A stretch of 64,000 nucleotides of DNA from Candidatus Pacearchaeota archaeon (GCA_018304105.1 JAGVWX010000020.1:97494-161493); one strand, 5' to 3'; counted from the first letter of the stretch, positions 5,820 through 47,530 are shown. Numbers and translations are program-made. Notes: a model not told the origin generated them from the sequence alone.

Positions 5820-6124
5820 TATGCAACGACCTCCAATTCCTCATAACCTGCCGCTTTTCTCATAGCAATCGGTCCAAAATCTTCTTTTGAAACTAATTGT
5901 TTGTATCTTTGCATTGAAACTTTCGTCACAAAATCAGCAACATTCCTTCCATTTTCGGTTCTCTGATTATAAACCCCTATTACTCTTCCATAATCTACAA
6001 CATTGTCCTCGTGGGGAAACCAATCGCCATCATTTCCAATTCTAAGGACTCTCAGTTTATCTCCAACTCGCGGTATGCTGTCACCTTCAATATCAACAAA
6101 ACTCAAAAAAACACCGATGCTCAT
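5819..6124 (-). CDS. orphan 101-aa ORF inserted between uS12 and uS7
   Basis: Its start ATG overlaps the uS12 stop (ATGA at 6124-6121). Its stop overlaps the S7 start (TAATG at 5819). No family recognised. Confidence 0.5.
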   Translation of the reverse strand: MSIGVFLSFVDIEGDSIPRVGDKLRVLRIGNDGDWFPHEDNVVDYGRVIGVYNQRTENGRNVADFVTKVSMQRYKQLVSKEDFGPIAMRKAAGYEELEVVA

Positions 6125-6545
6125 CTTCTTCCCTTCTCAATCTTTCCTTTGACAAGTCTCTTCAAAGGCTGATCGTTTACTTTAATTACTCTTATCTCCC
6201 TTGGAACGTCCCTGCTTTCCGCCAATTCTTTCGATTATAACTTCATCGTGTTCATCCACAAACTTCTGCGCGAGATTTCCCGGAATGAACGCGCCAACTT
6301 GAATTCCATTTTTAACGAGCTGTACTTTGCAGCATTTCCTCATCGCGGAGTTTGGCTGCGCCGCCTCTTTCTGAAACTTTTCAATCACAATTCCCTTCGC
6401 CTGGCTAGAGCCTCCAAGCGGGTCCGATTTTATTTTGAGATTAAGCATTTTCGCATTATACATCTTATCGGCCCACCTAAACTGTTTTGGCCCACCTAAA
6501 CTGTTTTCTCTTCTTCGCTAATTTTCTAGCTCCCATCAATCCCAT
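6121..6545 (-). pseudogene. rps12: 30S ribosomal protein uS12 with two reading-frame disruptions
   Basis: Three collinear pieces. [18 protein letters not shown] runs from the ATG at 6545. [52 protein letters not shown]...[11 protein letters not shown] is track ORF 6182-6463. [24 protein letters not shown]-stop lies in the +1 frame and ends at 6121. Total length is 425 nt; removing the 19-nt duplication leaves 406 nt, which is 1 mod 3. Confidence 0.85.
6470..6507. repeat. perfect 19-bp tandem duplication (GGCCCACCTAAACTGTTTT x2) inside uS12
   Basis: Read directly. Copies are at 6470-6488 and 6489-6507. Removing one copy restores ...[24 protein letters not shown]. Confidence 0.95.
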
Positions 6546-7599: not shown

Positions 7600-10500
7600 T
7601 TATTTTTTCTTCTCGCTCTTCTGTTCTCTTGCCAAAGGCCCAGTGACCTTGACCAGCAATCCAGGCAATCCGGTTCCAACTGGAATCGGCTGGTTAAGCA
7701 AAATGTTTTCAATAACGGACTTAAGCTCGTCCTCTGCGCCCTTTATCGTCGCATTAACGAATTGCTTGTCCGGAGTTTCAAAAGTTGCCCTGGCAAGAAT
7801 GCTTGCCTTGTCAGTGATAATTCCCATTCTCGTTACTCCTTTAACCACTCCGGAAGAAGTCATTGCGTCAGCGACAAGCTGCAGATGCCTTTCATTAATG
7901 TCAAGCCCCTGAGTTTGGATAACATTTTTTATTTCATTGATTATGGTCAGCCTTGCCGCCTCAACTCCAAGCACATTTTTGACATCGTGAATATCGTTGG
8001 AAAATACTTTGTCTCTGTTAACTCCTTTTATTTCCAGGATTTCTTTCAAGTTAGAGCCGTTAGTCAAGATGACAAAGTCTCTGTCTCTTTTCGAAACTAT
8101 GACTTGCGGAACTCCTTTGACACCAGAAACTATCGTTTCTTTTAATTTTCCCTTCAGCTTGTACATTTCTTTGAAGCCAATTTCCGGAAGCGGAACAATT
8201 ATTTTATTTCCATTGATATTGACTTTAAACTTCTTGTCTATCAGCTTATCAGCAATTTTCTGGACGCCCGCATGCGTTCTTCTAACCGCTTCAGAATCTA
8301 ATTCTATCTCAATCTTTTTATTTCCAAAGTCAAGATTAATCTCAGACAAAACTTCTTCAAGCTTCACTTCTTTTATTTTTTCTGCCAAAATCCTTGCTTC
8401 CTTTTCATTGTTATGGTCTTTGTCAAGATAAATCTCCATCATCGGAGTTGAAGGTTGTTTTCTCGCGTCAAGAATTTCAATTAATCTCGGCAAACCCAGC
8501 GTAATCTGCATTTGCGCGACTCCAGCGTGGTGGAAAACGTTCAGGACCATCTGAGTTGAAGCCTCGCCAAAAGATTGTGCAGTTACAACGCCGACGGCCT
8601 CGCCAGGACAAATCTTGTCATCCTTCAGGTGAAGCTTGGCAACATCTTTTCCATCATATCCGTACACAAATTGAACAACATTTTCTGAAGCGTCTCTTAC
8701 AGTTCCATCGTATTCAACTTTCAAGTCCTGCAATGCGCTGACAAGTCGTCTGTACAAATAACCGGACTTAGGAGTTCTCAAAGCAGTATCCATCTGGCTG
8801 TCTCTTCCCGTTATCGCTCCAAAGAAAAATTCTGTTGGCTTGAGTCCTTTCAGGTAAGAAGATTTGATGAATCCTCTGGACTCTGAGCTAAGGTCACCTT
8901 TCTTGAAGAAAGATAATGTTCTGTCATTATATCCAAAACTAATTCTTCCATTCCATAAAACCTGCTGTCCGACGCAGCAGCCCATCTGTGTGATGTTCGT
9001 GATTCCGCCGCCGCTTCCGGATTTTATCATCATATTTATGTTTGCCTCCGGAGGCAGATTGACTTTAACAATATCTCCAACATCTGTTCTAACAGCGTTC
9101 AATATCTGCATAATCTTTGTTTCTCTTGTCTCTTCTGCGGTCTTCCCAGGCACAGCTTCCAAATTTCCAGAATTGTATTCTTCAATAACTTCCACCGTTC
9201 TTTTCTCTGCCTTCTCGATAATTTCTTTAGTAATCTCCTTAACTTTGTCCAGTACATCAATGTCGTGAAGTGAAAGAGTGTAGCCAACTCTGCTCAAATA
9301 CGAAGTTCCAAGCGTGAATGCCTTGTTGATTGTGTCTACCGCAACCTCTCTTCCCATCTCTCTATCAACTACTTTTACAAGCTCTCCATCTTCTGCACCA
9401 AACGTTTTGCTTCCGGTAATTATTGAAGGAACTGTAATTTTAGCTCCCTTCGGAATGACCTGCGCAAAAACTTCTGTTCCAGAAATTTCTTTCTTCTTAA
9501 TAGTATTCATCACGTTTGCAGAAAATAGCAGCTGATCTGCAAGACCCTTGTCCACAGTCGCTTTTCCAAGAAGATACGCGCCAGTAACAGCATCGGCAAT
9601 CGTTCCAACAAGGTTGGTATTATTTTTTGATGAGATTATATTCTTATTAATGTCCAACAAAATCTTTGCTTCAGAAAGCGCTTCTTCATTTTGCGGGCTG
9701 TGAATGTTCATTTCGTCTCCATCAAAGTCAGCGTTGTAAGGCGCAGCCGCGGCCGGATTTAGCCTGAAAGTCCTTCCAGGTAAAACTTTAACATAATGTG
9801 CCATCAAGCCCTGCTTGTGCAAGGTCGGGTGTCTGTTGAACAAGACAATATCGCCGTCTCTCAAATGTCTTTCAATTTTATATCCAGGCTGGATTTCGTT
9901 CATGATTTCTTCCTTCAGGTCTTCAGATAATCTCTTTCTTCTTCCGTCTGGTCTTATCACGTTATTCGCTCCAGGGTAATCAGTTCCCCTTTTAACAAGT
10001 TCCTTCATTTCTTCAAGATTTGTCGTCGTCACAGATTCCGCAACAGTGATGATTCTAGCAATCTGCTCAGGCACGCCAATTTCATTAATCTTCAAGTAAG
10101 GGTCTGGCGAAACAACCGACCTCGCAGAATAATTTACTCTCTTGCCAGCAAGATTATGCCTGATTCTTCCTTCTTTGCCTTTGATTCTTTCTGTTATTGT
10201 CTTCAATGGCTGTCCAGACCTGTGTCTCGCAGGGGGAATTCTTGTAACATTATTATCATAAAATGTGGTTATGTGATATTGCAGCAAGTCCCACAAATCT
10301 TCAATGATTACTTCTGGAGCTCCCGCGTTTAGGTTTTCCCACAATCTTTGATTAGCTCTGATTATGTCTGAAAGTTTGTGAGTCAAGTCGTCTTCGCTTC
10401 TTTCTCCGGTGTCAAGAGTAATCGACGGCCTGACAGTAACAGACGGCACAAGAAGCAAAGATATAACTGCTCTCTCCGGCCTCGCGGTCTTAGTGTTAAT

Positions 10501-11037
10501 CCCGATTTTCTTAAGTTCGTCATCAGAAATATTGACAAGTCTTTCTCTCACTTCAATCGGATTCAATCTTTTTTTGTCTATGAAAAAGTTTGTTGGTTTC
10601 TCAAGCTTTACTCTATCGATGTTCTCGTTGCAATGCGGGCATTTCTTCGCGTCTCTTGCTTTCTTCGCCCTTTCAGCAGGCGTCAGTCCTTTCTGCTTTT
10701 CATCTGACAGCGTCAACTTACCGCAATGAGGGCAGAAACTTCTCAAGCACAATTCCATCAAAGGAATATACTTGATATGCAAAACCGGTCTCGCAAGCTC
10801 GATGCTTCCGGGATGTCCGGGACATTCCTTAACTCTCTTCCCGCAAGTCCTGCATCTTACTCCCGGGTCAATCGCTCCAAGCCGCAAGTCCATAAGGCCT
10901 CCATCAACCGGGAAACCGTCAATGTCATAAAGTTCCGGAGTCACAACTTTCACCGCGCTAATTTTCTTAATCTGGTCCGGACTAAGCAAACTGAAACTCA
11001 GGCTTCTGACTTGTTTTCTCGAATATCTATTGCTCAT
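7600..11037 (-). CDS. rpoA: DNA-directed RNA polymerase subunit A, with A' and A'' encoded as one continuous ORF
   Basis: N-terminus has the zinc motifs RCRTCGKRVKECPGHPG, plus NADFDGDEMN. A''-type sequence (KICPGEAVGVVTAQSFGEASTQM...GLPRLIEILDARK...FETPDKQF) follows in frame with no stop or start around 8560-8700. The ATG at 11037 is preferred over the track TTG at 11043. Confidence 0.95.
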   Translation of the reverse strand: MSNRYSRKQVRSLSFSLLSPDQIKKISAVKVVTPELYDIDGFPVDGGLMDLRLGAIDPGVRCRTCGKRVKECPGHPGSIELARPVLHIKYIPLMELCLRSFCPHCGKLTLSDEKQKGLTPAERAKKARDAKKCPHCNENIDRVKLEKPTNFFIDKKRLNPIEVRERLVNISDDELKKIGINTKTARPERAVISLLLVPSVTVRPSITLDTGERSEDDLTHKLSDIIRANQRLWENLNAGAPEVIIEDLWDLLQYHITTFYDNNVTRIPPARHRSGQPLKTITERIKGKEGRIRHNLAGKRVNYSARSVVSPDPYLKINEIGVPEQIARIITVAESVTTTNLEEMKELVKRGTDYPGANNVIRPDGRRKRLSEDLKEEIMNEIQPGYKIERHLRDGDIVLFNRHPTLHKQGLMAHYVKVLPGRTFRLNPAAAAPYNADFDGDEMNIHSPQNEEALSEAKILLDINKNIISSKNNTNLVGTIADAVTGAYLLGKATVDKGLADQLLFSANVMNTIKKKEISGTEVFAQVIPKGAKITVPSIITGSKTFGAEDGELVKVVDREMGREVAVDTINKAFTLGTSYLSRVGYTLSLHDIDVLDKVKEITKEIIEKAEKRTVEVIEEYNSGNLEAVPGKTAEETRETKIMQILNAVRTDVGDIVKVNLPPEANINMMIKSGSGGGITNITQMGCCVGQQVLWNGRISFGYNDRTLSFFKKGDLSSESRGFIKSSYLKGLKPTEFFFGAITGRDSQMDTALRTPKSGYLYRRLVSALQDLKVEYDGTVRDASENVVQFVYGYDGKDVAKLHLKDDKICPGEAVGVVTAQSFGEASTQMVLNVFHHAGVAQMQITLGLPRLIEILDARKQPSTPMMEIYLDKDHNNEKEARILAEKIKEVKLEEVLSEINLDFGNKKIEIELDSEAVRRTHAGVQKIADKLIDKKFKVNINGNKIIVPLPEIGFKEMYKLKGKLKETIVSGVKGVPQVIVSKRDRDFVILTNGSNLKEILEIKGVNRDKVFSNDIHDVKNVLGVEAARLTIINEIKNVIQTQGLDINERHLQLVADAMTSSGVVKGVTRMGIITDKASILARATFETPDKQFVNATIKGAEDELKSVIENILLNQPIPVGTGLPGLLVKVTGPLAREQKSEKKK

Positions 11038-11314
11038 ATTCAAATCCTTCTGGGCTATCCAGAATATCGTCCCACTCTTCTACTATTGAACGAAATTCTC
11101 CAATTAATATTGGTTCATTTTTATAGAGAAGGCCAACTCTTCTAGCCAAGGCAAATTCGTCAGTATCACTATCAACAATTCCAACGCTGTTATTAATTGC
11201 TCTAACAGCAATATGTCTATCCCCGTAGCCTGCTTCTCTTAGCGCCTCTGCATTACCTAATACATATTTTCTTGCTCTTTCAAATTCCATCGCTTTTGTT
11301 CTATTGCTCATATT
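11026..11314 (-). repeat. 15-bp direct repeat pair (AATATGAGCAATAGA on the coding strand) at 11026-11040 and 11300-11314
   Basis: The same 15-mer forms both the rpoB-stop/ORF94-start junction and the ORF94-stop/rpoA-start junction. Period is 274 nt. Confidence 0.95.
11027..11311 (-). CDS. orphan 94-aa ORF inserted between rpoB and rpoA
   Basis: Start overlaps the rpoB stop and stop overlaps the rpoA start. Acidic C-terminus. No family recognised. Confidence 0.5.
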   Translation of the reverse strand: MSNRTKAMEFERARKYVLGNAEALREAGYGDRHIAVRAINNSVGIVDSDTDEFALARRVGLLYKNEPILIGEFRSIVEEWDDILDSPEGFEYEQ

Positions 11315-23083: not shown

Positions 23084-23836
23084 CTATCTAACTTTTCTGT
23101 ACTTATTTCTTAAATATTCATAAGCGCCACTAACAAGATTAGTTGCGATAGGTAAAATAGTTAGTATTCCCATTGGAACAAAGGCGAACGCTTCTTCTGC
23201 AGGACTCGGAGAAATATTTCTAATGCCCCACGATACACCTACTCCTAAACTGGTAAAAGCTCCAATTACAACATGAGGCACTACCGTTGAAGCAGCAATA
23301 TCAATTGCCAACTCTTCGCCAGATCGCAATATTCTTTGCATTCTTTCGTAAGTAGGTCTTAGATAAATCTTCTGCGTCCACTCCAAAACATCTCTTGTAA
23401 TGCTCTTCGTAACGTTAAGACTCTTTGAAATTCCAGTTCCTTCTTCCTTATTAGCTCTATTTTCCAACTCCGAACTTCTTTCTCTTTCTTTCACAATTCC
23501 TATCCTTCTCAATAACTCGTCGCTAACTCCAAACTGTTTAAAATCTTGATATGTTCGTATTCCGGCCACAGCGTAATCAGCACGAATTTCTCCAGGTTTA
23601 ATATCTTTAAATGTATCCATAACTGGCCCAAGCACCTGTTCAATTTCTTCCCTCATTGTATCTCCGTATTCTTGGTCTGTCAAAGGGTGGCGGATTGTTT
23701 CTGTTCTCGCAGCAGTTTTCTGTACTGATTCTTCAACTTCCAAAGGTGCTTCTTTTACTTCATCATCTCTTATAACTTTCGTCTCAACAGGTTTTTCCCG
23801 AACCTTCATTCCTTCGTCTTCATATTCTCTGCTCAT
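23084..23836 (-). CDS. hypothetical protein with an acidic N-terminal half and C-terminal TM helices
   Basis: 250-aa ORF directly downstream of the nuclease gene on the same strand. Confidence 0.5.
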   Translation of the reverse strand: MSREYEDEGMKVREKPVETKVIRDDEVKEAPLEVEESVQKTAARTETIRHPLTDQEYGDTMREEIEQVLGPVMDTFKDIKPGEIRADYAVAGIRTYQDFKQFGVSDELLRRIGIVKERERSSELENRANKEEGTGISKSLNVTKSITRDVLEWTQKIYLRPTYERMQRILRSGEELAIDIAASTVVPHVVIGAFTSLGVGVSWGIRNISPSPAEEAFAFVPMGILTILPIATNLVSGAYEYLRNKYRKVR

Positions 23837-29300: not shown

Positions 29301-29566
29301 ATGAGACTTACTCCGATTGGCGAACGCGTGGTCTTGAAGCAGACTGCGAAAGAAGAACGAACAAGGTCAGGAATTTACCTTCCGAAATCAGAAGATAAAA
29401 AAGAAGGAATTATAGTAGAAGTCGGAACATTAAAAGACGGCTCATTAATTCCGTTAAGAAAAGGCGACAAAGTTATTTACGGCGGCTACTCAAGCGAGGA
29501 ATACGAAGTCAACGGAGAAAAGCTTTTAATAGTTGACTTCAAAGATATTTTAGCAAAGATTGAAGG

Positions 29567-29570
<4 letters not shown>
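29301..29570 (+). CDS. groES: co-chaperonin GroES
   Basis: 89 aa with PIGERVVLK...SGIYLP...GDKVIYGGY. Confidence 0.95.
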
Positions 29571-31531
<1,961 letters not shown>

Positions 31532-33887: not shown

Positions 33888-34910
33888 ATGAAAATTAGTT
33901 TTGAGTTCCGCAAGGCATACCTTATTGTAGTTCTTGCATTAGCTGTTGTTTTGAGTGCTGGTTATGTTTTTGCAAGTCTTATAACGCCAATCCGAAATCC
34001 AGGACATTATGCTAGCGAACTTCAAAAGTGCAGCGATGGCGAGATTTTAAAGATGGTTGGTGGGACATGGGCATGTGATCCTGGAATAAGCAGCCAATGG
34101 ACAAACGTCGCAGGTGGAATTAATTATGCTGGCGGTAATGTGGGAATTGGCACGACGACGCCAGGTCAGCCATTAACTGTTAAGAGCGATGCGGGTATGG
34201 GTTTGCAATCCGAAAACAGCGGGGACGGAGGAAAACAGATTACGTTTATTAATTCTGATGGAACGGCTAAGAGCATTGTTGGGCGAGGAAATGATAATCA
34301 AGAGTGGACAGGAATTACTTCTCTCGGTGCAAGCAGCTGGCAGTTTGTCGTAATGGATACCGGCAAGGTGGGAATCGGAACAGAGGTGCCCCAAGCGAAA
34401 TTGGAAGTTTATGATTCTGGCACATTTAATCCTGCAGACATAGGAAACGGAGCGCATATCGCAATTGGACACATCAATGGCATTTTAAGTTCTGGTGGAA
34501 ATTGGGATGCTGTAGGTTTTTGTTCAGGGACTAATGATCCCGCTAATCCGGGCACCCCAGCCCAAATTGGGTGCCAAGGCGTCAATCTCGTGGGAAATAT
34601 GTATTGGGCAACTAGAAACTCGGACAACAAAATGACTAATTTAATGACATTATACAAGAACGGAAATTTAGGCGTTAATGGAGTGAAACTTGCGCCACAA
34701 ACTTCTCTTCCTGCATGTAACTCTGCAAACAACGGTTTAATCGTCTATGTGAGCGGCACTAATTGGGTTCGCTCAGAAGGCGGTTGCAACTACTATTCAA
34801 TCGAACACTGTCCGAATATTTGCACGTATTATACCGATCAGAACGGCAACACTGTTAGCAACTGGATTGATATGGGAAATTGTGGCGCAATTGAAGTAGA
34901 CGATTGTTAA
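33888..34910 (+). CDS. secreted or membrane-anchored protein, unknown function (340 aa)
   Basis: N-terminal TM/signal, G/N/T-rich, C-terminal Cys-rich tail. Confidence 0.5.
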   Translation: MKISFEFRKAYLIVVLALAVVLSAGYVFASLITPIRNPGHYASELQKCSDGEILKMVGGTWACDPGISSQWTNVAGGINYAGGNVGIGTTTPGQPLTVKSDAGMGLQSENSGDGGKQITFINSDGTAKSIVGRGNDNQEWTGITSLGASSWQFVVMDTGKVGIGTEVPQAKLEVYDSGTFNPADIGNGAHIAIGHINGILSSGGNWDAVGFCSGTNDPANPGTPAQIGCQGVNLVGNMYWATRNSDNKMTNLMTLYKNGNLGVNGVKLAPQTSLPACNSANNGLIVYVSGTNWVRSEGGCNYYSIEHCPNICTYYTDQNGNTVSNWIDMGNCGAIEVDDC

Positions 34911-35019
34911 CAAAATATCTAACTCCCTATTATCTTAATCTTTTTTATTCTGCCATCCCACTAATCCAAATAACAAAGTCCATCAAAACGTTTAAAAACT
35001 AATTCCCTCAGTAAATTCT

Positions 35020-35316
35020 ATGTTGAAACACAAGTCTCCAAGACAGAAAGGAAAGTTCTCATTCACTAGATTTTTCCAGAAATTCAAGCCAGGCGACAGC
35101 GTTGCTGTAGTCAGAGAGCTAAGCATTCCATTGGGTTATTCAAAGCGAATCCAGGGCAGAACAGGCAAAGTCCTAGAAAAGCGCGGCACAGCATACTATG
35201 TTGAAATCAAAGACCTCCACAAGCCCAAAAGATATTTAATCAAGCCAATTCATCTAAAGAGAATTGAAGATATGCCAATACACACACAATCAACAACCGT
35301 CGGAGGAAGAAAGTAA
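35020..35316 (+). CDS. rpl21e: 50S ribosomal protein L21e
   Basis: 98 aa with FKPGDSVAVV...GRTGKVLEKRGTAYYVEI...IKPIHLK. Confidence 0.9.
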   Translation: MLKHKSPRQKGKFSFTRFFQKFKPGDSVAVVRELSIPLGYSKRIQGRTGKVLEKRGTAYYVEIKDLHKPKRYLIKPIHLKRIEDMPIHTQSTTVGGRK

Positions 35317-35317
35317 A

Positions 35318-35614
35318 ATGGCGTCACAACCACAAACGCAAGTAGAGCAAGTAGCACAACTAAGAATGAGCAGAGAGTCATTTTCATTAGTTGTTAAAGG
35401 TCTATCCGAAGGGGCACGTGCTTTAGCAGACGCAGAGGATTTTGAGGGTGCAATCTTGGGAATAAATAGAACGAACGTGATATGCAGTAGAGTTTATTTA
35501 GGTCTAGCTACACAAGAGAAAAGAGAATTATTATCTTATTTTACTAAGATGCAAGGCACCATAGATGATGCGGCTAGTTATGTGGTAAGGAAGAGAGGGG
35601 AAGCTCAAAGATGA
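35318..35614 (+). CDS. orphan 98-aa ORF inserted between L21e and rpoF
   Basis: The ATG is one base after the L21e stop. Its stop overlaps the rpoF ATG (ATGA). A/Q/R-rich, unlike its K/E/I-rich neighbours. Confidence 0.45.
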   Translation: MASQPQTQVEQVAQLRMSRESFSLVVKGLSEGARALADAEDFEGAILGINRTNVICSRVYLGLATQEKRELLSYFTKMQGTIDDAASYVVRKRGEAQR

Positions 35615-35922
35615 CAATCCATACAAAACAATTCTTAACACTCGCAGAAGTCAAAGAAATAGTTGACAAAATGGAAGATGGCGAAAAGAATGAGGAAATA
35701 AAATCTTATCTCAAGAAATTCACAAAGCTCTCTAAGAAAGATGCGGCCAAGTTAAAAGAAGAGTTAACAGCTCTCAACAATGTCAAAGTCAGAGAAGAAA
35801 ACATAATCAAGCTCGTCGACATCGTCCCTAAGGACGCAGAAGATGTTAACAAAATTTTCGTTGACACCAGCTTGACCGAAGAGGAAACAAATGCAATTTT
35901 GGAGATTACTAAGAAGTATTAA
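35611..35922 (+). CDS. rpoF: RNA polymerase subunit F (Rpo4)
   Basis: 103 aa with an HRDC-like C-terminus (IIKLVDIVPKDAEDVNKIF...EEETNAILEI). Conserved L21e-rpoF-DUF655 context. Confidence 0.75.
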   Translation: MTIHTKQFLTLAEVKEIVDKMEDGEKNEEIKSYLKKFTKLSKKDAAKLKEELTALNNVKVREENIIKLVDIVPKDAEDVNKIFVDTSLTEEETNAILEITKKY

Positions 35923-36016
35923 CAAAGAAAATGACAGAAGCAACATTATCAATAGCAAAGCTAGAAAGAACATATAGTTTTAACTTTAATTCTATTTTAA
36001 TTTTGCGAGGTGCGCA

Positions 36017-36346
36017 ATGATTGCGCAAAGAGCACCAAGGCAAAGAACGCTTTTATATGAAGAATTTCAGGGTAGAAAGATGATTGCTATTATGGGTCTT
36101 CTGGAAGGCGAGACTAATGGAGTTATGTATGTTGCTTGCGATTCGGACGGAATGGAAAGAGAATGGAATTGCGGAACGCTTGAAAGAGGTAATGAGAGTT
36201 TGGCGGGGGAGATAGCAGACATCGTTAGCAAAGGATACGAACCAATATTTGATTACACATTAGGCGGAGCTTTAAGGCCCGTGCCAGAAGGGCCAAGACA
36301 GATCATATTAAATTTATTAAATCAAAGAGACCGAGGAGGAAAGTAA
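36017..36346 (+). CDS. orphan ORF (109 aa)
   Basis: ORF only. Lies between rpoF and the DUF655 gene. Confidence 0.4.
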   Translation: MIAQRAPRQRTLLYEEFQGRKMIAIMGLLEGETNGVMYVACDSDGMEREWNCGTLERGNESLAGEIADIVSKGYEPIFDYTLGGALRPVPEGPRQIILNLLNQRDRGGK

Positions 36347-36351
36347 GTAAA

Positions 36352-36672
36352 ATGAGAGTATACGATGACTCAAACAGATACGTAGGAGAATATGACATAT
36401 TAATCCCAGCAGAACAAGTTGATAAATTCGTAAAAAAAGTTATGGCCCTTTCTAAAAAGAAGATAGATCAACTTTGGCACGAAACAAGATATATCTACAG
36501 CGAGAAAGATAATAATTTAGCATTGCCAAATGAAAGGATAAATAAAATAAAGAACGATTTTGATTTTGCTAAAAAGGATTTTCTTGGTGTAATAGGAGAC
36601 ATACCAGGAGATGAGTTGGAAGTTATTAGTATCTTTTTAAATAGTCTAAAAAACATCGAGGCTAAGAAATAA
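36352..36672 (+). CDS. orphan ORF (106 aa)
   Basis: ORF only. Its stop is one base before the DUF655 ATG. Confidence 0.4.
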   Translation: MRVYDDSNRYVGEYDILIPAEQVDKFVKKVMALSKKKIDQLWHETRYIYSEKDNNLALPNERINKIKNDFDFAKKDFLGVIGDIPGDELEVISIFLNSLKNIEAKK

Positions 36673-36673
36673 A

Positions 36674-37213
36674 ATGTCCGAGAAAGAAGACTATGCGATA
36701 GTATTGGATTACCTGCCGTACGGTTATCCAATGGAAAAGCACACTAATCCCATAGCTCAAGCCATAGGCATAAAAACTTTTTCCCTTCTCGAATTAATTC
36801 CTCGGAGAGGCGTTACTCTCGAAACAAAAGAAAAAGTTTATATAGGCCCAGATAAGAGAGATAAGATATACTACATCGCAGGTAGGCTCCATCGTGAGAA
36901 GCTTACAGAAACTGCAAAGATCCAACTGCAAGAGTTCGTTGAGGCAGTGGTTGGGGAGCAGGAGAAAACCTTCGTGGAATTCTTCAACAATGCTCAAGCC
37001 ATCAACACCCGCCTACATCAACTTGAACTCCTGCCAGGTTTTGGAAAAAAACACACAAAGGAAGTTATGGATGCGCGAAAAGAAAAAGCGTTTGAAAGCT
37101 TCGAAGACATCAAGGCAAGGGTCAAATCAGTTCCCGATCCAAAGAAAGCCATTGAAAAACGGTTCATCGAAGAGCTTACAGTAAGGCAACGCTTCAATCT
37201 GTTCACGCACTAA
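36674..37213 (+). CDS. DUF655-family archaeal protein (OB fold + HhH, putative RNA/nucleotide binding)
   Basis: 179 aa with AIVLDYLPYGYP..., ...FFNNAQAINTRLHQLELLPGFGKKH. Usual neighbour of L21e/rpoF. Confidence 0.8.
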   Translation: MSEKEDYAIVLDYLPYGYPMEKHTNPIAQAIGIKTFSLLELIPRRGVTLETKEKVYIGPDKRDKIYYIAGRLHREKLTETAKIQLQEFVEAVVGEQEKTFVEFFNNAQAINTRLHQLELLPGFGKKHTKEVMDARKEKAFESFEDIKARVKSVPDPKKAIEKRFIEELTVRQRFNLFTH

Positions 37214-37228
37214 ACACATAAATCAATA

Positions 37229-37633
37229 ATGACAAGAGACCAATCAACAACAGGAGAAGCACAAACACAAAATCCCATGAGGGTAGAAGAGCTTCTAGCA
37301 AATAATCCAAATTATACTATTTCAGACGGTTTTATCAGGCCAGTAACGGGCGGATCTGCTAATAGGCTTGTTGACCTTGCTGTAGTTGGTAAAGACAGAA
37401 TTCCTGTAATAACTTATTCCCCGGCCAGAGGACTTTTAGTTGCTCTTGGACAATCAAATCTGGCAGGTTATCTAATGAGATTTGGAATCCAAACAAGAGA
37501 GCAAATGACAGGCTCGAACGTTCCAGATATATACGCAGGATTTGGAAGTCAACTATTAGCTTTGGCACATAGACTCCGACCAGAACAGGATAGAATGGTA
37601 TCAGAAGAATTACAAAGAGGTCAACAAGGATAA
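37229..37633 (+). CDS. orphan ORF (134 aa), G/R/Q-rich
   Basis: ORF only. Its stop is one base before the S13 ATG. Confidence 0.4.
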   Translation: MTRDQSTTGEAQTQNPMRVEELLANNPNYTISDGFIRPVTGGSANRLVDLAVVGKDRIPVITYSPARGLLVALGQSNLAGYLMRFGIQTREQMTGSNVPDIYAGFGSQLLALAHRLRPEQDRMVSEELQRGQQG

Positions 37634-37634
37634 A

Positions 37635-38216
37635 ATGGCCGGCCGAGAAAAACAATCGCCAAAAGAAGACCAGAAGCAGCAGAAGCAGAAAGAAGAGTCT
37701 GCTGAAAAGAAAAAGCAAAGCATGCGTCATGAAGAAGAAAGCGAAGAGATGCTCATCAGAATTTCTGGCTACGATATTCCGGGAAGCAAAAAACTTCTCG
37801 CTGGCCTCACCAGAATAAAGGGTGTCGGCTGGGCAATATCGAACGCGGCCTGCTTAAAGCTCGGTTTCTCGAGAGACAAAAAAATTGCCGAATTATCAAA
37901 AGATGAAATAAAAAAGATAGAAGAATTTTTGAAAAATCCAAGCGTTCATGACTATATGAAAAATCGCCAGAAAGACGAAGAGACCGGCGAAACGCATCAT
38001 TTTGTTGGAACAGACCTTGAGATGAGAAAAGACTTCGACATCAGAAAGATGAAGAAAATCCGTTCTTACAAAGGAATCCGTCACACTTCAGGCCAGCCAG
38101 TCCGCGGTCAGAGAACTCGTTCGCACTTCAGAAAGAAAGGCCAGCTCGTCGCAGTCAGAAAAAAGACAGAAGCCGCGCCAGCAGCAAAGCCAAAGCCAGC
38201 AGGAGGCAAGAAGTAA
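37635..38216 (+). CDS. rps13: 30S ribosomal protein uS13 with a charged N-terminal extension of about 40 aa
   Basis: IRISGYDIPGSKKLLAGLTRIKGVGWAISNA...YKGIRHTSGQPVRGQRTRS. Confidence 0.95.
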   Translation: MAGREKQSPKEDQKQQKQKEESAEKKKQSMRHEEESEEMLIRISGYDIPGSKKLLAGLTRIKGVGWAISNAACLKLGFSRDKKIAELSKDEIKKIEEFLKNPSVHDYMKNRQKDEETGETHHFVGTDLEMRKDFDIRKMKKIRSYKGIRHTSGQPVRGQRTRSHFRKKGQLVAVRKKTEAAPAAKPKPAGGKK

Positions 38217-38507
38217 ATGGCTTGGGGAAGTAGAATTCACGGGGCGATAACAAGAAGGTTAAGGGAATTAATAACTCATAGAAAAGTTGTAACTTTAAAT
38301 GTTTTTGATGAACAATCCACCAAAGTACCAAGATACTCTCATGAAGGAAAATTAATTTATAGCGGCCGAGGATATTTCCTTGTACCTAATGAGGGCAGCG
38401 AGAGAATAAAAATTGATGTTCGTTCTGTTACCGCTATTCAAGGCCAGGTCATAAATAGAGATGCAAGTTATCTGACTAGTCATGTTGAAGGGGCAAGTGC
38501 AAGATGA
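38217..38507 (+). CDS. orphan 96-aa ORF inserted between uS13 and uS4
   Basis: The ATG immediately follows the S13 stop. Its stop overlaps the S4 ATG (ATGA). Confidence 0.45.
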   Translation: MAWGSRIHGAITRRLRELITHRKVVTLNVFDEQSTKVPRYSHEGKLIYSGRGYFLVPNEGSERIKIDVRSVTAIQGQVINRDASYLTSHVEGASAR

Positions 38508-39049
38508 TACGCAAAAAAAATCTTTACCGAAGGCCATTAAAGCCGTTTGAATCTGTAAGAATCAAGGAAGAGAACGAGATAGCTAAAAAATACGGCCTGA
38601 AAAACAAAAGGGAAATTTGGAAAGCGATAGCAAAGGTAAATTATTATCGCGGAAGGGCAAAGGCACTCGCGAACATGCCTCATGAAGAGCAAAACGTCCT
38701 GTTCAAAAAACTCCAAGCTCTTGGTTTGAAAGTTGAAACCATTGCCGATGTTCTCGACCTTAACGTCGAGAGCCTTCTCCAAAGAAGACTTCCCACAATA
38801 ATGGTCCAAAAGAAACTCGCAACAACTCCAAAGCAGGCTCGCCAGATGGTTACTCACAAATTAGTGAAGATAAATTCCAGCACGGTTAATTCCCCAAGTT
38901 ATCTCGTTCCTGTTTCAGAAGAAAATAAAATAGAAATAAAAAAAGCAACAAGGAAAGCAAAGCCGGTTGCCGAAGATGCAGTAACAGAACCCCAACCTGA
39001 AGCCTTGTCAGAAGAAGAACTCGAAGAAGCTGAAGGAGTAGAAGAATAA
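38504..39049 (+). CDS. rps4: 30S ribosomal protein uS4 with an acidic C-terminal tail
   Basis: KKYGLKNKREIWK...RRLPTIMVQKKLATTPKQARQMVTHKLVKIN. Confidence 0.95.
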   Translation: MIRKKNLYRRPLKPFESVRIKEENEIAKKYGLKNKREIWKAIAKVNYYRGRAKALANMPHEEQNVLFKKLQALGLKVETIADVLDLNVESLLQRRLPTIMVQKKLATTPKQARQMVTHKLVKINSSTVNSPSYLVPVSEENKIEIKKATRKAKPVAEDAVTEPQPEALSEEELEEAEGVEE

Positions 39050-39618
39050 TGGCAGAAGAAGAAACAAAAGAAAATGCGAAAGAAGAAATCGTTCAGGATG
39101 CAGCTGATATCAGTTCGCCAAAGCGAGGAGCTTCGCAGCAAAGCGAGAAAGCCCGCAGCAAGAGCGAATCTGAGACAGAAGAACATGCAGAAGATATCCA
39201 AGAAATAGATTTATCTGAAGAAAAGGAATCTAAGTCGAAAGCAAAAGACGAAAAAGTCGGCATCGCTTACATCAAAAGCTCGGGCAACAACACGATGGTT
39301 CACATTACTGACCTTGCGGGCAGCACAATCTCGCGAGTTTCCGGCGGAATGATAACAAAGCATTCAAGATTAAAATCAAATCCAACTATCGCAATGTTCG
39401 TCGCCAAGCGCGCAGCAGAAAGGCCGCGTGACCTGGGCTTTACAAAATTGTATGTCCGGATGAAAGGCAAAACCGGCGAAAACCACGGTCCCGGAGCGAA
39501 CGCAGCAATAAAAAGTCTGAACAAAGAGGGCTTCGACATAATAAGCATATTAGACACAACTAAAGTCCCGCGCGGAGGCCCAAAGAAGAAAGGCGGAAGA
39601 AGGGGAAGAAGAGTCTAA
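39049..39618 (+). CDS. rps11: 30S ribosomal protein uS11 with an acidic N-terminal extension of about 65 aa
   Basis: GIAYIKSSGNNTMVHITDLAG...GPGANAAIKSL...PRGGPKKKGGRRGRRV. Confidence 0.95.
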   Translation: MAEEETKENAKEEIVQDAADISSPKRGASQQSEKARSKSESETEEHAEDIQEIDLSEEKESKSKAKDEKVGIAYIKSSGNNTMVHITDLAGSTISRVSGGMITKHSRLKSNPTIAMFVAKRAAERPRDLGFTKLYVRMKGKTGENHGPGANAAIKSLNKEGFDIISILDTTKVPRGGPKKKGGRRGRRV

Positions 39619-39655
39619 CAGTAAACCTTAAAATCCCAAATTCATAATCATAATC

Positions 39656-40351
39656 ATGGAAACAATACAAAACATAAACGAGATGCTTGTCTTGAGGATA
39701 GACGCGAACCTTCCTTTAGCAAACGCAATTCGCCGGTCTCTTTCTGATGTTCCAACTCTCGCGATTGACGATGTCGAGGTTTACAAGAACGATTCCGCGC
39801 TTTACGACGAGATAATCGCAAATCGTTTGGGAATGGTCCCATTGAAAACAGAAAAGTCAATGTCCCCAAAGACAAAAATCGACATGAAACTTTCAAAAAA
39901 AGGTCCTGGCCAGGTTTATTCTGGCGATCTTGAAGGCCCAGCCACAGTCATCTATCCAAAAATTCCAATAACTCTTCTTGGTGAAGGTCACAAACTCGAA
40001 TTAATGGCAACAGCAACTCTCGGCATCGGAAGAAGCCACGCCAAGCACATTCCAGGACTCTGCTACTATCGTTACATCCTCGAAGTAAAGTCGTCTCCTC
40101 AAATTGACGAAATAGTTGAAAAGTCAAAAGGATTAATCAAACCGGAAAAAAAAGTAAGCAAGTGGCTATGCGACATAAACGAAGCAATAATAAAAGAAAT
40201 TGAAAAGCTTGACAAGGGCGCAGTGACCGACAGCTCAGAAATTCTGTTCATAATCGAATCTTACGGCAACATGCCCGCAAAAGATATTTTGTCTGAAGCC
40301 GTCAAAGCTCTCGAGCACAATTTGGATGAGTTCGAAAAAGAACTTAAGTAA
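39656..40351 (+). CDS. rpoD: RNA polymerase subunit D (Rpo3)
   Basis: 231 aa with ANAIRRSLSDVPTLAIDDVEVYKNDSALYDEIIANRLGMVPL. Follows S11 as in archaeal alpha operons. Confidence 0.9.
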   Translation: METIQNINEMLVLRIDANLPLANAIRRSLSDVPTLAIDDVEVYKNDSALYDEIIANRLGMVPLKTEKSMSPKTKIDMKLSKKGPGQVYSGDLEGPATVIYPKIPITLLGEGHKLELMATATLGIGRSHAKHIPGLCYYRYILEVKSSPQIDEIVEKSKGLIKPEKKVSKWLCDINEAIIKEIEKLDKGAVTDSSEILFIIESYGNMPAKDILSEAVKALEHNLDEFEKELK

Positions 40352-40374
40352 ATTAAGATTTATTCTAAAATAAT

Positions 40375-40935
40375 TTAACTTGCAACTCTTTGTATTTCCG
40401 GTTGAGCAAATCCTCTCAAATTTTCATCAGCATAAACTCCCAAGTAAATGGGAGTTCTCTTTTCTGCTGTCCCGCGCCAAAAATTTGTCCAATTTGGTTT
40501 TACAATTTCAGTCGGCACAATCACATAGTCGCGACCCCTGTCTCCGAAAGGACCATCTTCGCGAATATCCCAACCAAATTCCGTTTTATCTGAGGGCAGC
40601 ATAGAGCCAGCATAACCTTCATTAAGCCTTTTTATAAATCCAGTTCCTCGCCGTGCAAATTCGACACTATCGTTTATCTCTTTACATAATTTCCATGCTC
40701 CCTCTGGGTCATAAGTAGAATCAATAGTTATCCCAGAATAAGTCCAGCTTCTTCCCAAACCCAGATTATCAACTAAACTTCCTCCAAGAAATAGTCTTGG
40801 TCTTGCAAATTTAGTAACTCTGGTAAATTCGTTATCACGTAAGACACTAACAACTCTTCTCATCGATTCTCTGTCTTCTGGTCTAAATAATCCTTCAAAC
40901 GCTCTGAAATCATCATTCGTAACATCAATGTGCAT
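40375..40935 (-). CDS. hypothetical protein (186 aa)
   Basis: ORF only. Confidence 0.45.
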   Translation of the reverse strand: MHIDVTNDDFRAFEGLFRPEDRESMRRVVSVLRDNEFTRVTKFARPRLFLGGSLVDNLGLGRSWTYSGITIDSTYDPEGAWKLCKEINDSVEFARRGTGFIKRLNEGYAGSMLPSDKTEFGWDIREDGPFGDRGRDYVIVPTEIVKPNWTNFWRGTAEKRTPIYLGVYADENLRGFAQPEIQRVAS

Positions 40936-45820: not shown

Positions 45821-46195
45821 ATGCACAAATTAAGCAAGACAAAACTAAAAGAGCGTTTAAGAAAAAAAACTAATCCAGTTTTAGTTGAAACCCTGGACGC
45901 AGCAATTAGAAATCCAAGTTGGAGAGACGTCGCAAAAATCATATCTGGCTCAACAAGAAACTACGCATCAAAAAACTTATTTGAAATAGACGAGGTAACA
46001 AAAACTGGCGATACTGTCATTATCGTAGGAAAGATTCTGAGCAAAGGCGAATTAACAAAGAAAATCAGAATCTGTGCTCTCGCGATTTCAGAAAAAGCAA
46101 AAGAAAAACTCAAATCATCCAAGTCAGAAATCGTCTCAATCCTCGAAGAGATAACTAAAAATCCAAAAGCTGAAGGAATTAAGGTGTTAAGATGA
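45821..46195 (+). CDS. rpl18e: 50S ribosomal protein L18e
   Basis: 124 aa with TGDTVIIVGKILSKGELTKKIRICALAISEKAKEKL. Precedes L13-S9. Confidence 0.85.
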   Translation: MHKLSKTKLKERLRKKTNPVLVETLDAAIRNPSWRDVAKIISGSTRNYASKNLFEIDEVTKTGDTVIIVGKILSKGELTKKIRICALAISEKAKEKLKSSKSEIVSILEEITKNPKAEGIKVLR

Positions 46196-46596
46196 CAGAA
46201 AAAATAATAATCGATGCAGAAGGCGGAGTAATGGGAAGGATTGCAGCATTCGCTGCGAAGCAAGCCCTCTTCGGAAAAGAAGTTGTAATCGTTAACTGCG
46301 AGCACGCTGCAATTACCGGCAGTCCAAGAAGAATAATTGAAGGCTATCAGCAGAAAAGAGGTCGCGGCGGCACAGCCCAAAGAGGTCCATACTTTCCAAA
46401 AAGTCCAGAAAGAGTAATGAAACGAACAGTCCGCGGAATGCTTTCCCACACGCAATTTCGAGGCAGGGCTGCTTTCAAAAGAGTAATTTGTTACGACGCT
46501 GTTCCAGCAGAATATCAAGCTTCAAAAAAAACCTCAATGAAAAGAGAAATCAAAACTAAATCAATCAATCTGGCAAGATTGAGCAGGGAATTATAA
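46192..46596 (+). CDS. rpl13: 50S ribosomal protein uL13
   Basis: IIDAEGGVMGRIAAFAAKQAL.GKEVVIVNCE...RTVRGML. Confidence 0.95.
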   Translation: MTEKIIIDAEGGVMGRIAAFAAKQALFGKEVVIVNCEHAAITGSPRRIIEGYQQKRGRGGTAQRGPYFPKSPERVMKRTVRGMLSHTQFRGRAAFKRVICYDAVPAEYQASKKTSMKREIKTKSINLARLSREL

Positions 46597-47021: not shown

Positions 47022-47071
47022 CTACTTTGCAGTATAATTTATTTTATAAACTACATAACTCGTTTATTTTT

Positions 47072-47530
47072 ATGCAAACAAATCATCCATTGGACGCTGT
47101 AGAAATAAGAGGAAACGACCCAGAAAAAGTGCGCGGTTTATTGAGACTTTTACCTGTAAATACATTTCCGTTTGTTAGAGAATTTCAAAAAGGTTCTGCC
47201 GAACTTAAGGAAGAGTATTGTGGGCAGATTGGAATATATGCTCAAGAATCGCCCTATGTTGGAAAAAACGGGGGAGTCATGCTAATCATAATAAATGAAC
47301 ATTTATTTGGCAATCCAACAACTTCAGAGGACAATCCTTTATTGAGAGTTCCAAATGGGGCCACAAATATTTTGATTGTCCCTCCAAGACAGTCCCCTTT
47401 AAAGAAAGATCATCCTTTCATGGGCACAGAATTTTCATATCGAGGAGTAGATTATCTTCTCGGATATGAATTAAGCGGTGGAGCACATGCAGCGATCATT
47501 AATACTTTAGTTGCCGCTCAACGGAATTGA
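47072..47530 (+). CDS. hypothetical protein (about 152 aa)
   Basis: The ATG at 47072 (MQTNHPLD...) is preferred over the track TTG at 47027. It occupies the position where rpoN/rpoK usually follow S9. Confidence 0.4.
   Translation: MQTNHPLDAVEIRGNDPEKVRGLLRLLPVNTFPFVREFQKGSAELKEEYCGQIGIYAQESPYVGKNGGVMLIIINEHLFGNPTTSEDNPLLRVPNGATNILIVPPRQSPLKKDHPFMGTEFSYRGVDYLLGYELSGGAHAAIINTLVAAQRN

Follow-up and report, generated by a model that had tools for sequence, protein, structure and literature searches.

In a 64,000-nucleotide stretch of DNA from a Candidatus Pacearchaeota metagenome-assembled genome (GCA_018304105.1, JAGVWX010000020.1:97494-161493; proteins MBS3077791 to MBS3077833), hereafter the window, small orphan open reading frames (ORFs) occupy the junctions between consecutive genes of ribosomal-protein, RNA polymerase and chaperonin operons. 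We consider it fairly probable that these inserts are taxonomically restricted accessory genes that ride on the expression of core operons, that the junctions are hotspots at which such genes are exchanged by recombination, and that some of the insertions duplicate the junction they enter. The longest series lies on the + strand at 35020-40351, where the gene order is L21e, ins1, rpoF, ins2, ins3, DUF655, ins4, S13, ins5, S4, S11 and rpoD, with ins1 to ins5 denoting the orphan ORFs (coordinates in Table 1).

An earlier note on this DNA, made from the sequence alone, had listed these five ORFs. All are present, on the operon strand and between neighbours identified by Pfam matches of the window proteins (L21e, rpoF, DUF655, S13 and S4); S11 and rpoD were assigned from orthologues in relatives for which Pfam families are on record. 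The further cases that it had named, at the rpoB-rpoA, S12-S7 and groES-groEL junctions, also proved real. This brings the total to eight junction inserts in 64 kb, to which two orphans with low GC content at third codon positions (GC3) can be added, one after the gene for elongation factor 2 (EF-2) and one after S9. The statement that every boundary is a gap of 0-5 nt or an overlap of the ATGA or TAAATG type held for eight of the ten boundaries at the five inserts; it failed between rpoF and ins2, which are separated by an AT-rich spacer of 94 nt, and between DUF655 and ins4, where the spacer is 15 nt. At the tight boundaries, ins1 starts 1 nt past the L21e stop and its end overlaps the rpoF start as ATGA, and ins3 stops 1 nt ahead of the DUF655 start.

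The ORFs look like genuine protein-coding genes. Seven junctions were compared with shuffled sequences, of which at most 0.2% per junction gave an ORF on the operon strand that spans the gap (P about 0.001 for each of the five inserts), and in nine of ten ORFs the base composition is non-random by codon position, with a G-rich first and an A/T-rich third position. The inserts described beforehand as rich in Ala, Gly, Arg and Gln contain these residues at a fraction of 0.29-0.35, compared with 0.09-0.27 in the neighbours; ins3 (36352) is K/E/I-rich and neighbour-like. The GC3 comparison that had been proposed separates the inserts (0.22-0.35) from their neighbours (0.37-0.47), most window genes lying near 0.4. 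GC content at first and second positions of the five ORFs is 0.42-0.56 and 0.21-0.45, respectively, which is normal or high except in ins3. The possibility raised at the outset that the ORFs lack a coding signal therefore finds no support in the codon-position bias, in the substitution pattern or in the confident fold predicted for one of them, both described below.

Purifying selection acts on both families that were open to testing. The proportion of nonsynonymous differences (pN) is below that of synonymous differences (pS) in the ins4 family (0.32-0.46 versus 0.57-0.70) and for the groES-groEL insert (0.45 versus 0.68). The nonsynonymous substitution rate (dN) of the groES-groEL insert is 0.68, compared with 0.08 for groES and groEL, and over both groups of inserts it amounts to 0.4-0.7 versus 0.05-0.27 for the neighbours, that is, two to eight times faster. 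Judged from these comparisons, the insert proteins appear to be fast-evolving and under weak purifying selection. Within the species, pN/pS had no power because the strains are 99.9% identical.

We then compared the operon among relatives, with a DUF655-anchored set of 80 species-representative and 80 metagenome loci that are 60-96% identical. The junctions are numbered J1 (L21e-rpoF), J2 (rpoF-DUF655), J3 (DUF655-S13), J4 (S13-S4), J5 (S4-S11) and J6 (S11-rpoD). All seven core genes are syntenic in every fetched locus. Among about 150 related loci the junctions are compact (0-100 nt) in most Pacearchaeota, and inserts of 170-850 nt are limited to one clade and one neighbour on a neighbour-joining tree of the core proteins, in agreement with the suspicion that operons of such conserved synteny hold more inserts here than expected. 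Alignment with compact relatives gave clean insertion boundaries and well-aligned flanks; the insert DNA itself is unalignable between species. The left edge of the J1 insertion is visible in the alignment with the compact junctions of the relatives L170-L172 and L002, which lack the final 15 codons of L21e (MPIHTQSTTVGGRK*, from about 35272). The tail encoded there, MPIHTQ, resembles the N-terminus of rpoF, MTIHTK, and marks this edge.

Occupancy of the junctions differs sharply from genome to genome. In the window J1, J2 (two ORFs), J3 and J4 are filled; in L161, J1, J2 (again two ORFs), J3 and J6; in L004, J1, J3 (two ORFs), J4 and J5; and in L002, J3 and J6. L170, with rpoF 84% identical to that of the window, has inserts at J2 and J6. 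Sites of insertion in relatives thus include S4-S11 and S11-rpoD. L171 and L172 (rpoF 83% and 80% identical to the window) are occupied at J4 only, by ORFs of 220 and 93 amino acids, and L082, whose DUF655 is 91% identical, has none at J1-J4, J5 and J6 lying off its contig; in the turnover comparison of L082, L171 and L172, rpoF is 77-85% identical. J4 alone illustrates the pattern: L171 and L172 have unrelated ORFs there, whereas in L170, L161 and L002 the junction is compact. Likewise, ins1 is not present in compact relatives and has no similarity to the ORFs at the same junction of L161, L004, L084 and others. The rpoB-rpoA-NusA-S12-S7-EF-2 string is equally patchy. Its rpoB-rpoA junction has an insert in L176 but none in L173 and L175, where it is compact, and its S12-S7 junction is compact in L176 and contains unrelated ORFs in L175 (101 amino acids) and L173 (74 amino acids). 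The junctions behave as turnover hotspots: close relatives differ by gain, loss and replacement of inserts, and near-identical genomes apparently do so as well.

No known family accounts for the inserts, as had been claimed. Pfam, NCBIfam, PHROGs and PADLOC returned no family for those of the window, the ribosomal and RNA polymerase models of NCBIfam and Pfam did not match any of them, and Pfam, PHROGs and PADLOC gave no match for any of 58 inserts collected from the window and its relatives. Searching the 160 related loci with the five inserts by tblastn yielded zero matches. With ins4, exhaustive phmmer searching recovered three small full-length homologues (P0044, P0045 and P0048; 55%, 46% and 35% identical), each located between DUF655 and S13 in a relative; its other matches were partial, to repeats of large repeat proteins. 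Weaker relatives occur at the same junction in L001, L003 and L084. No fewer than four species, and probably six or more, keep the ins4 family at the DUF655-S13 position. A word-indexed protein search with ins4 found the same species only and overlooked the 55%-identical homologue, and we therefore discounted negatives of the indexed search for short, fast-evolving proteins such as these. All-against-all comparison by phmmer and by Smith-Waterman with shuffling revealed no overall insert family, but three small families and a few pairs.

A structural model of ins4 was obtained with AlphaFold. From the single sequence the prediction was uninformative (predicted local distance difference test, pLDDT, 42), and a five-sequence alignment gave a compact predicted alpha/beta fold (pLDDT 82, predicted template modelling score 0.68). 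Foldseek searches of PDB and BFVD with this model returned nothing significant (best E-value 0.05-0.8), nor did a search of PDB sequences with the ins4-family profile. Nuclease-like folds recur, solely among the non-significant Foldseek matches, and the family has neither conserved catalytic residues nor a conserved D...(D/E)xK motif.

Could the ORFs be non-functional filler that is kept free of stops so that ribosomes read through to the next gene, or products of chance or annotation? Four of the five have no detectable homologues, their sequence turnover is extreme, their low GC3 is that of sequence without codon selection, and ins2 has a weak codon-position bias. We nevertheless hold this to be very improbable. 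Chance ORFs of such length are excluded by the shuffling, avoidance of stop codons is insufficient to produce the position-specific composition that is significant in nine of ten ORFs, pN is below pS wherever it could be tested, and the ins4 family combines conserved residue patterns with a confidently predicted fold.

The same ORF family can be found at different junctions in different genomes, and sequence comparison indicates this for three families. The window rpoB-rpoA insert is similar to the L21e-rpoF insert of L091 (32% identity over 85 amino acids, E 1e-8) and is also homologous to the rpoB-rpoA insert of L176. A member of the ins4 family is positioned upstream of DUF655 in L087, at rpoF-DUF655, and not downstream. 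A third family, recognised by the motif YHFRDTT, occurs at J1 in L161, as the second ORF of J3 in L097 and at J3 in L168.

At one site the insertion has left a clear duplication of the junction. A perfect direct repeat of 15 nt, AATATGAGCAATAGA (11026-11040 and 11300-11314), brackets the rpoB-rpoA insert and contains the overlapping rpoB stop and rpoA start; in L173 and L175, where the site is empty, this sequence occurs once. Because the junction is duplicated, the insert opens with the first four codons of rpoA (MSNR), and the part that is homologous to the L091 insert begins directly past them (MSNR-TKAMEFERAR versus MT-DD...TDRADYERAR). A 24-nt direct repeat, 83% identical, relates the start of the groES-groEL insert to that of groEL (29564-29587 and 29910-29933). 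Over 57 junctions, boundary repeats were detected in 17.5% compared with 4.3% of controls, an approximately 4-fold enrichment (p about 0.03) with repeat lengths of 12-24 nt. Given this modest enrichment, we rejected duplication of the start as a universal rule.

An apparent exchange between near-identical genomes is seen at J3. In the strain L168, identity to the window is 100% as far as position 37269 and 99.7% from 37630 onward; between these points lies an unrelated ORF body of 118 amino acids, and the ORF retains the first 13 codons of ins4. Single-nucleotide polymorphisms (SNPs) of L168 concentrate in the adjacent 5' part of S13. An additional ins4 variant, P0010, is a mosaic of the window and L168 forms.

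These results also bear on whether the inserts serve the ribosome or RNA polymerase of this lineage as accessory subunits or assembly factors, whose required stoichiometry with the neighbouring gene products would explain their place in these operons. Such a role would fit their placement and translational coupling inside ribosomal-protein and RNA polymerase operons, the persistence of the ins4 family between DUF655 and S13, its purifying selection and good predicted fold, and the unusual charged extensions of ribosomal proteins in this clade. We judge it decidedly improbable, since the close relatives L082, L171 and L172 lack all or part of the inserts, one family occupies places as functionally unrelated as rpoB-rpoA and L21e-rpoF, an equivalent insert separates groES and groEL, dN is several-fold that of the neighbours, and a near-identical strain has a non-homologous body at the same junction. 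Neither sequence nor predicted-structure searches gave a match to ribosomal or RNA polymerase structures. The earlier note had allowed for known small subunits that it failed to recognise; the inserts show no conservation among distant archaea and so are not subunits of that kind. Most likely they are dispensable accessory proteins and not parts of the ribosome or RNA polymerase.

The duplications and relocations would also be expected of an undescribed selfish element, a non-autonomous, promoter-less ORF cassette of DPANN archaea that targets the starts of highly expressed housekeeping genes, entering them a few codons in, duplicates the junction, captures the host start codon and hops among junctions and genomes. 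Around the rpoB-rpoA insert, a perfect duplication encloses an ORF with relatives of about 30% identity, closer relatives have the empty site, and the homologous body starts right past the duplicated codons in the window and L091 alike. Three families at differing junctions, the J1 and J2 left edges that copy the start of the downstream gene, and the enrichment of boundary repeats point the same way. The 58 inserts, however, have no transposase, integrase, reverse transcriptase or nuclease domain, and Pfam detected no LAGLIDADG, GIY-YIG, HNH or PD-(D/E)XK domain in them; neither terminal inverted repeats nor shared end sequences were found. The repeat length is inconsistent, most junctions have no repeat, boundary similarity is inflated by a shared motif, ATAAAATG, and ordinary recombination in the flanks accounts for the patchiness without dedicated machinery (PMC5635113). 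We therefore view a mobile cassette as unlikely.

Birth of the genes in place, either de novo or from duplicated ends of neighbours followed by rapid divergence, would require no foreign DNA. The left edges at J1, J2 and rpoB-rpoA copy the first codons of the downstream gene, neighbouring ribosomal proteins are growing low-complexity extensions, and viral contigs yielded no donor, although the four IMG/VR scans, which found no relatives, are sensitive to close relatives only. This origin seems to us exceedingly improbable. In blastn, tblastx and six-frame comparisons the inserts, except over their first 12-25 nt, resemble neither their neighbours nor any other part of the window, compact ancestral junctions supply just 0-20 nt of raw material, and members of one family recur at other junctions and in other genomes. 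On the negative blastn and tblastx results we likewise rejected an origin as frame-shifted or antisense copies of adjacent genes or as paralogues within the window.

Returning to accessory genes exchanged at operon junctions, the reading we favour, the following course of events may be proposed. In one subclade of Pacearchaeota, new ORFs would enter core information-processing operons at the points where one gene stops and the next starts. They would bring no promoter of their own, save possibly for a conserved element after rpoF, and would owe their expression to transcriptional read-through and to termination-reinitiation coupling at ATGA, TAAATG and TAAAATG junctions; the inserts would therefore ride on the strong expression of their neighbours. 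Spread and replacement could proceed by homologous recombination in the flanking genes, which are highly conserved. Some primary insertions, if not all, would duplicate the stop-start junction; the new ORF would thereby acquire the start codon and opening codons of the gene that follows it, and the direct repeats so left would permit precise excision.

Several observations weigh against this interpretation or limit it. That the inserts are co-transcribed and translated we infer from their spacing alone. The codon-position bias of ins2 is without significance (p=0.14). Synonymous sites are saturated among the compared species (four-fold-site identity 0.42-0.56, pS 0.5-1.0), so the dN/dS values are rough, and ORFs scored as unrelated at the same junction may be orthologues that have diverged beyond recognition. 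For ins1, ins2, ins3 and ins5, no homologue turned up in other species, the corresponding junctions of L161 included; beyond the indexed search, only tblastn on the fetched loci and close-relative scans of viral contigs were used, so that absence is weak evidence. Given the saturation, these four may have been replaced or may have diverged to an extreme degree. Most junctions have no boundary repeat, and the repeat is individually strong at one site only. Finally, the swap in L168 could be a chimera of two co-occurring populations, as it comes from a metagenome assembly.

The spacer after rpoF contains an island of conserved sequence, ATCATCAAGAAGAAAGCTAGAAAGAACATTTAGTTTTAAC, that compact relatives do not have. 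The J2 insertion starts with a copy of the DUF655 start, and the island opens with an ATG where DUF655 ancestrally began. Since its third codon positions are conserved as strongly as the first and second, it is probably a nucleotide-level element. This AT-rich island may act at the level of DNA or RNA and could be an internal promoter. An RNA explanation was dropped, as the island forms only a weak hairpin without covariation and Rfam gave no match across 34900-40500, which includes it.

Table 1. Coordinates of core genes, orphan ORFs and the conserved island in the window
Feature	Coordinates	Strand	Remarks
Low-GC3 orphan ORF downstream of EF-2, 115-118 aa	1224..1580	-	Homologue in L175, E 3e-7
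Orphan ORF at S12-S7, 101 aa	5819..6124	-	ATGA overlap onto true S12 stop
Orphan ORF at rpoB-rpoA, 94 aa	11027..11311	-	Homologues in L176 (rpoB-rpoA) and L091 (L21e-rpoF)
Orphan ORF at groES-groEL, 114 aa	29572..29916 (alternative start 29560)	+	Kept in two other species
L21e	35020..35316	+	Pfam PF01157
ins1, orphan ORF at L21e-rpoF, 98 aa	35318..35614	+	No family match; GC3 0.28
rpoF, RNA polymerase subunit F (Rpo4/Rpb4-like)	35611..35922	+	Pfam PF03874; homologues in relatives
Conserved island just after rpoF, ~40-60 nt	35931..35990	+	Common to six species: window, L161 (3583-3645), L170, L001, L002, L084
ins2, orphan ORF, first of two at rpoF-DUF655, 109 aa	36017..36346	+	No family match; GC3 0.35
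ins3, orphan ORF, second at rpoF-DUF655, 106 aa	36352..36672	+	No family match above threshold
DUF655 protein	36674..37213	+	Pfam PF04919, E 4e-60; synteny anchor
ins4, orphan ORF at DUF655-S13, 134 aa	37229..37633	+	Founding member of small same-junction family
S13	37635..38216	+	Pfam PF00416; N-terminal extension of 40 aa, K/E/Q-rich
ins5, orphan ORF at S13-S4, 96 aa	38217..38507	+	0 nt from S13 stop; ATGA overlap onto S4 start
S4	38504..39049	+	
S4, S11, rpoD (rest of operon)	38504..40351	+	No inserts in window genome; Pfam (S4), orthologues (S11, rpoD)
Low-GC3 orphan ORF downstream of L18e-L13-S9	47027..47530	+	167 aa from TTG, ~152 aa from ATG at 47072

The homologues of the groES-groEL insert are found at the same place in L002 and L172. 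The pair itself is of bacterial type in a DPANN archaeon (29301-31531) and is kept in both of these relatives, with the orphan ORF wedged between the two genes. The ORF at 46192-46596 is ribosomal protein L13 (TIGR01077, E 5e-37); it is tightly coupled between L18e and S9 and is not an orphan, and in the window genome the L18e-L13-S9 block lies apart from S13-S4-S11-rpoD. Two more orphan ORFs, 40375-40935 (- strand, 186 amino acids) and 23084-23836 (- strand, 250 amino acids), have GC3 of 0.26-0.28 and an insert-like composition and are located outside operon junctions. The S12 region (6121-6463, - strand) looks frameshifted: the ORF at 6182-6463 encodes 93 amino acids, and the canonical C-terminus follows just downstream in another frame. 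As the same-species contig L174 has an intact S12 of 140 amino acids, the frameshift stems either from a mutation in the strain or from faulty assembly. The rpoA' and rpoA'' genes are fused in one ORF of about 1145 amino acids (7600-11037, - strand), a trait of the lineage given that all 120 of the 120 listed Pacearchaeota and Nanoarchaeota homologues have the same length.

Other side observations concern the core proteins and the relatives. S13 (37635-37760) and S11 (39049-39260) have long K/E/Q-rich N-terminal extensions of about 40 and about 70 amino acids, the C-terminal tail of S4 is acidic (38960-39049), and the lengths of these extensions and tails differ among relatives. By eye, the 220-amino acid ORF at S13-S4 of L171 (4025-4687) has a signal-like hydrophobic stretch at its N-terminus and, at its C-terminus, a tail of hydrophobic and then basic residues reminiscent of a sorting signal; it would be unusual for a ribosomal operon to encode a protein of the secreted type. 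Large reverse-strand ORFs are present at S11-rpoD in L005 (2965-4176) and L038 (3690-4910), and an ORF with a LAGLIDADG domain lies downstream of the EF-2 region in L174 (10306-11220); classical mobile genes therefore also visit these operons.

Ribosomal-protein and RNA polymerase operons are regarded as the stablest gene strings of archaea and serve as phylogenetic and binning markers. One DPANN lineage tolerates orphan genes at internal junctions of these core operons and keeps renewing them, which suggests that organisms with tiny genomes and few promoters can express new genes by slotting them into strongly expressed, translationally coupled units. With filled, empty and swapped sites in one lineage, the origin and fixation of prokaryotic orphan genes become directly testable. 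On the practical side, junction inserts can break synteny-based annotation and the concatenation of marker genes in DPANN genome bins. Were the mobile-cassette explanation true, core operons would be a nursery for new small proteins, in which cassette and host gene both keep a start codon and their coupling.

The closest precedent is found among the ORFans of E. coli, which are presumed to have joined native operons by insertion and to be expressed from native promoters; an example inside a well-known operon is sdhCDAB-b0725-sucABCD, and insertions inside existing operons are much rarer there than additions at their ends (Price, Arkin and Alm 2006, PLoS Genet, PMC1480536). As with these, the inserts are narrow-clade genes on the same strand, tightly spaced beside native genes, presumably added by a single insertion and dependent on a native promoter, and purifying selection acts on some of them; searches detected homologues in narrow relatives only, and the ancestral operon is intact in relatives without an insert. 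Unlike those ORFans, they densely fill internal junctions of ribosomal-protein, RNA polymerase and chaperonin operons, at least eight in 64 kb, with stop-start overlaps, and turnover, relocation between junctions and junction duplication are seen. A second parallel is provided by core-flanked transfer hotspots that diversify by homologous recombination without mobile-element genes (Oliveira et al. 2017, Nat Commun, PMC5635113). Here, too, one core-gene interval contains differing accessory genes with rapid turnover and no recognisable mobile-element genes. The SNP cluster in S13 of L168 may mark an imported tract in a flanking core gene. Classical hotspots, however, contain many genes between transcription units and are bacterial, whereas in this DPANN archaeon one or two ORFs of about 100 amino acids occupy a single intra-operon stop-start junction at which translational coupling must be preserved.

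Free-standing homing endonuclease genes and phage morons are similarly small, patchy and same-strand, lie between conserved, highly expressed genes and leave sites empty or filled. The inserts differ from the former in having no nuclease domain among the 58 examined and no conserved catalytic residues in the ins4 family, and from the latter in that morons bring a promoter and a terminator with them. Rickettsia palindromic elements and repeats resembling miniature inverted-repeat transposable elements are selfish DNA that is tolerated in essential genes and operons of a reduced-genome symbiont with frames preserved; such elements exist as many similar copies and are palindromic, whereas the present inserts are unique and lack terminal inverted repeats. 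The pattern of a target-site duplication is complete at rpoB-rpoA, suggestive at groES-groEL and a few junctions of relatives, and absent at most, with no transposase. As for conserved ribosomal proteins and RNA polymerase subunits, the inserts are missing from the compact operons of most Pacearchaeota. Species-specific orphans of gut bacteria are also reported to combine purifying selection with poor codon optimisation (PMC11293555). What sets the present case apart is the location of the inserts at internal sites of core operons, their density, the retention of stop-start overlaps, the relocation of families between junctions and the duplication of the junction.

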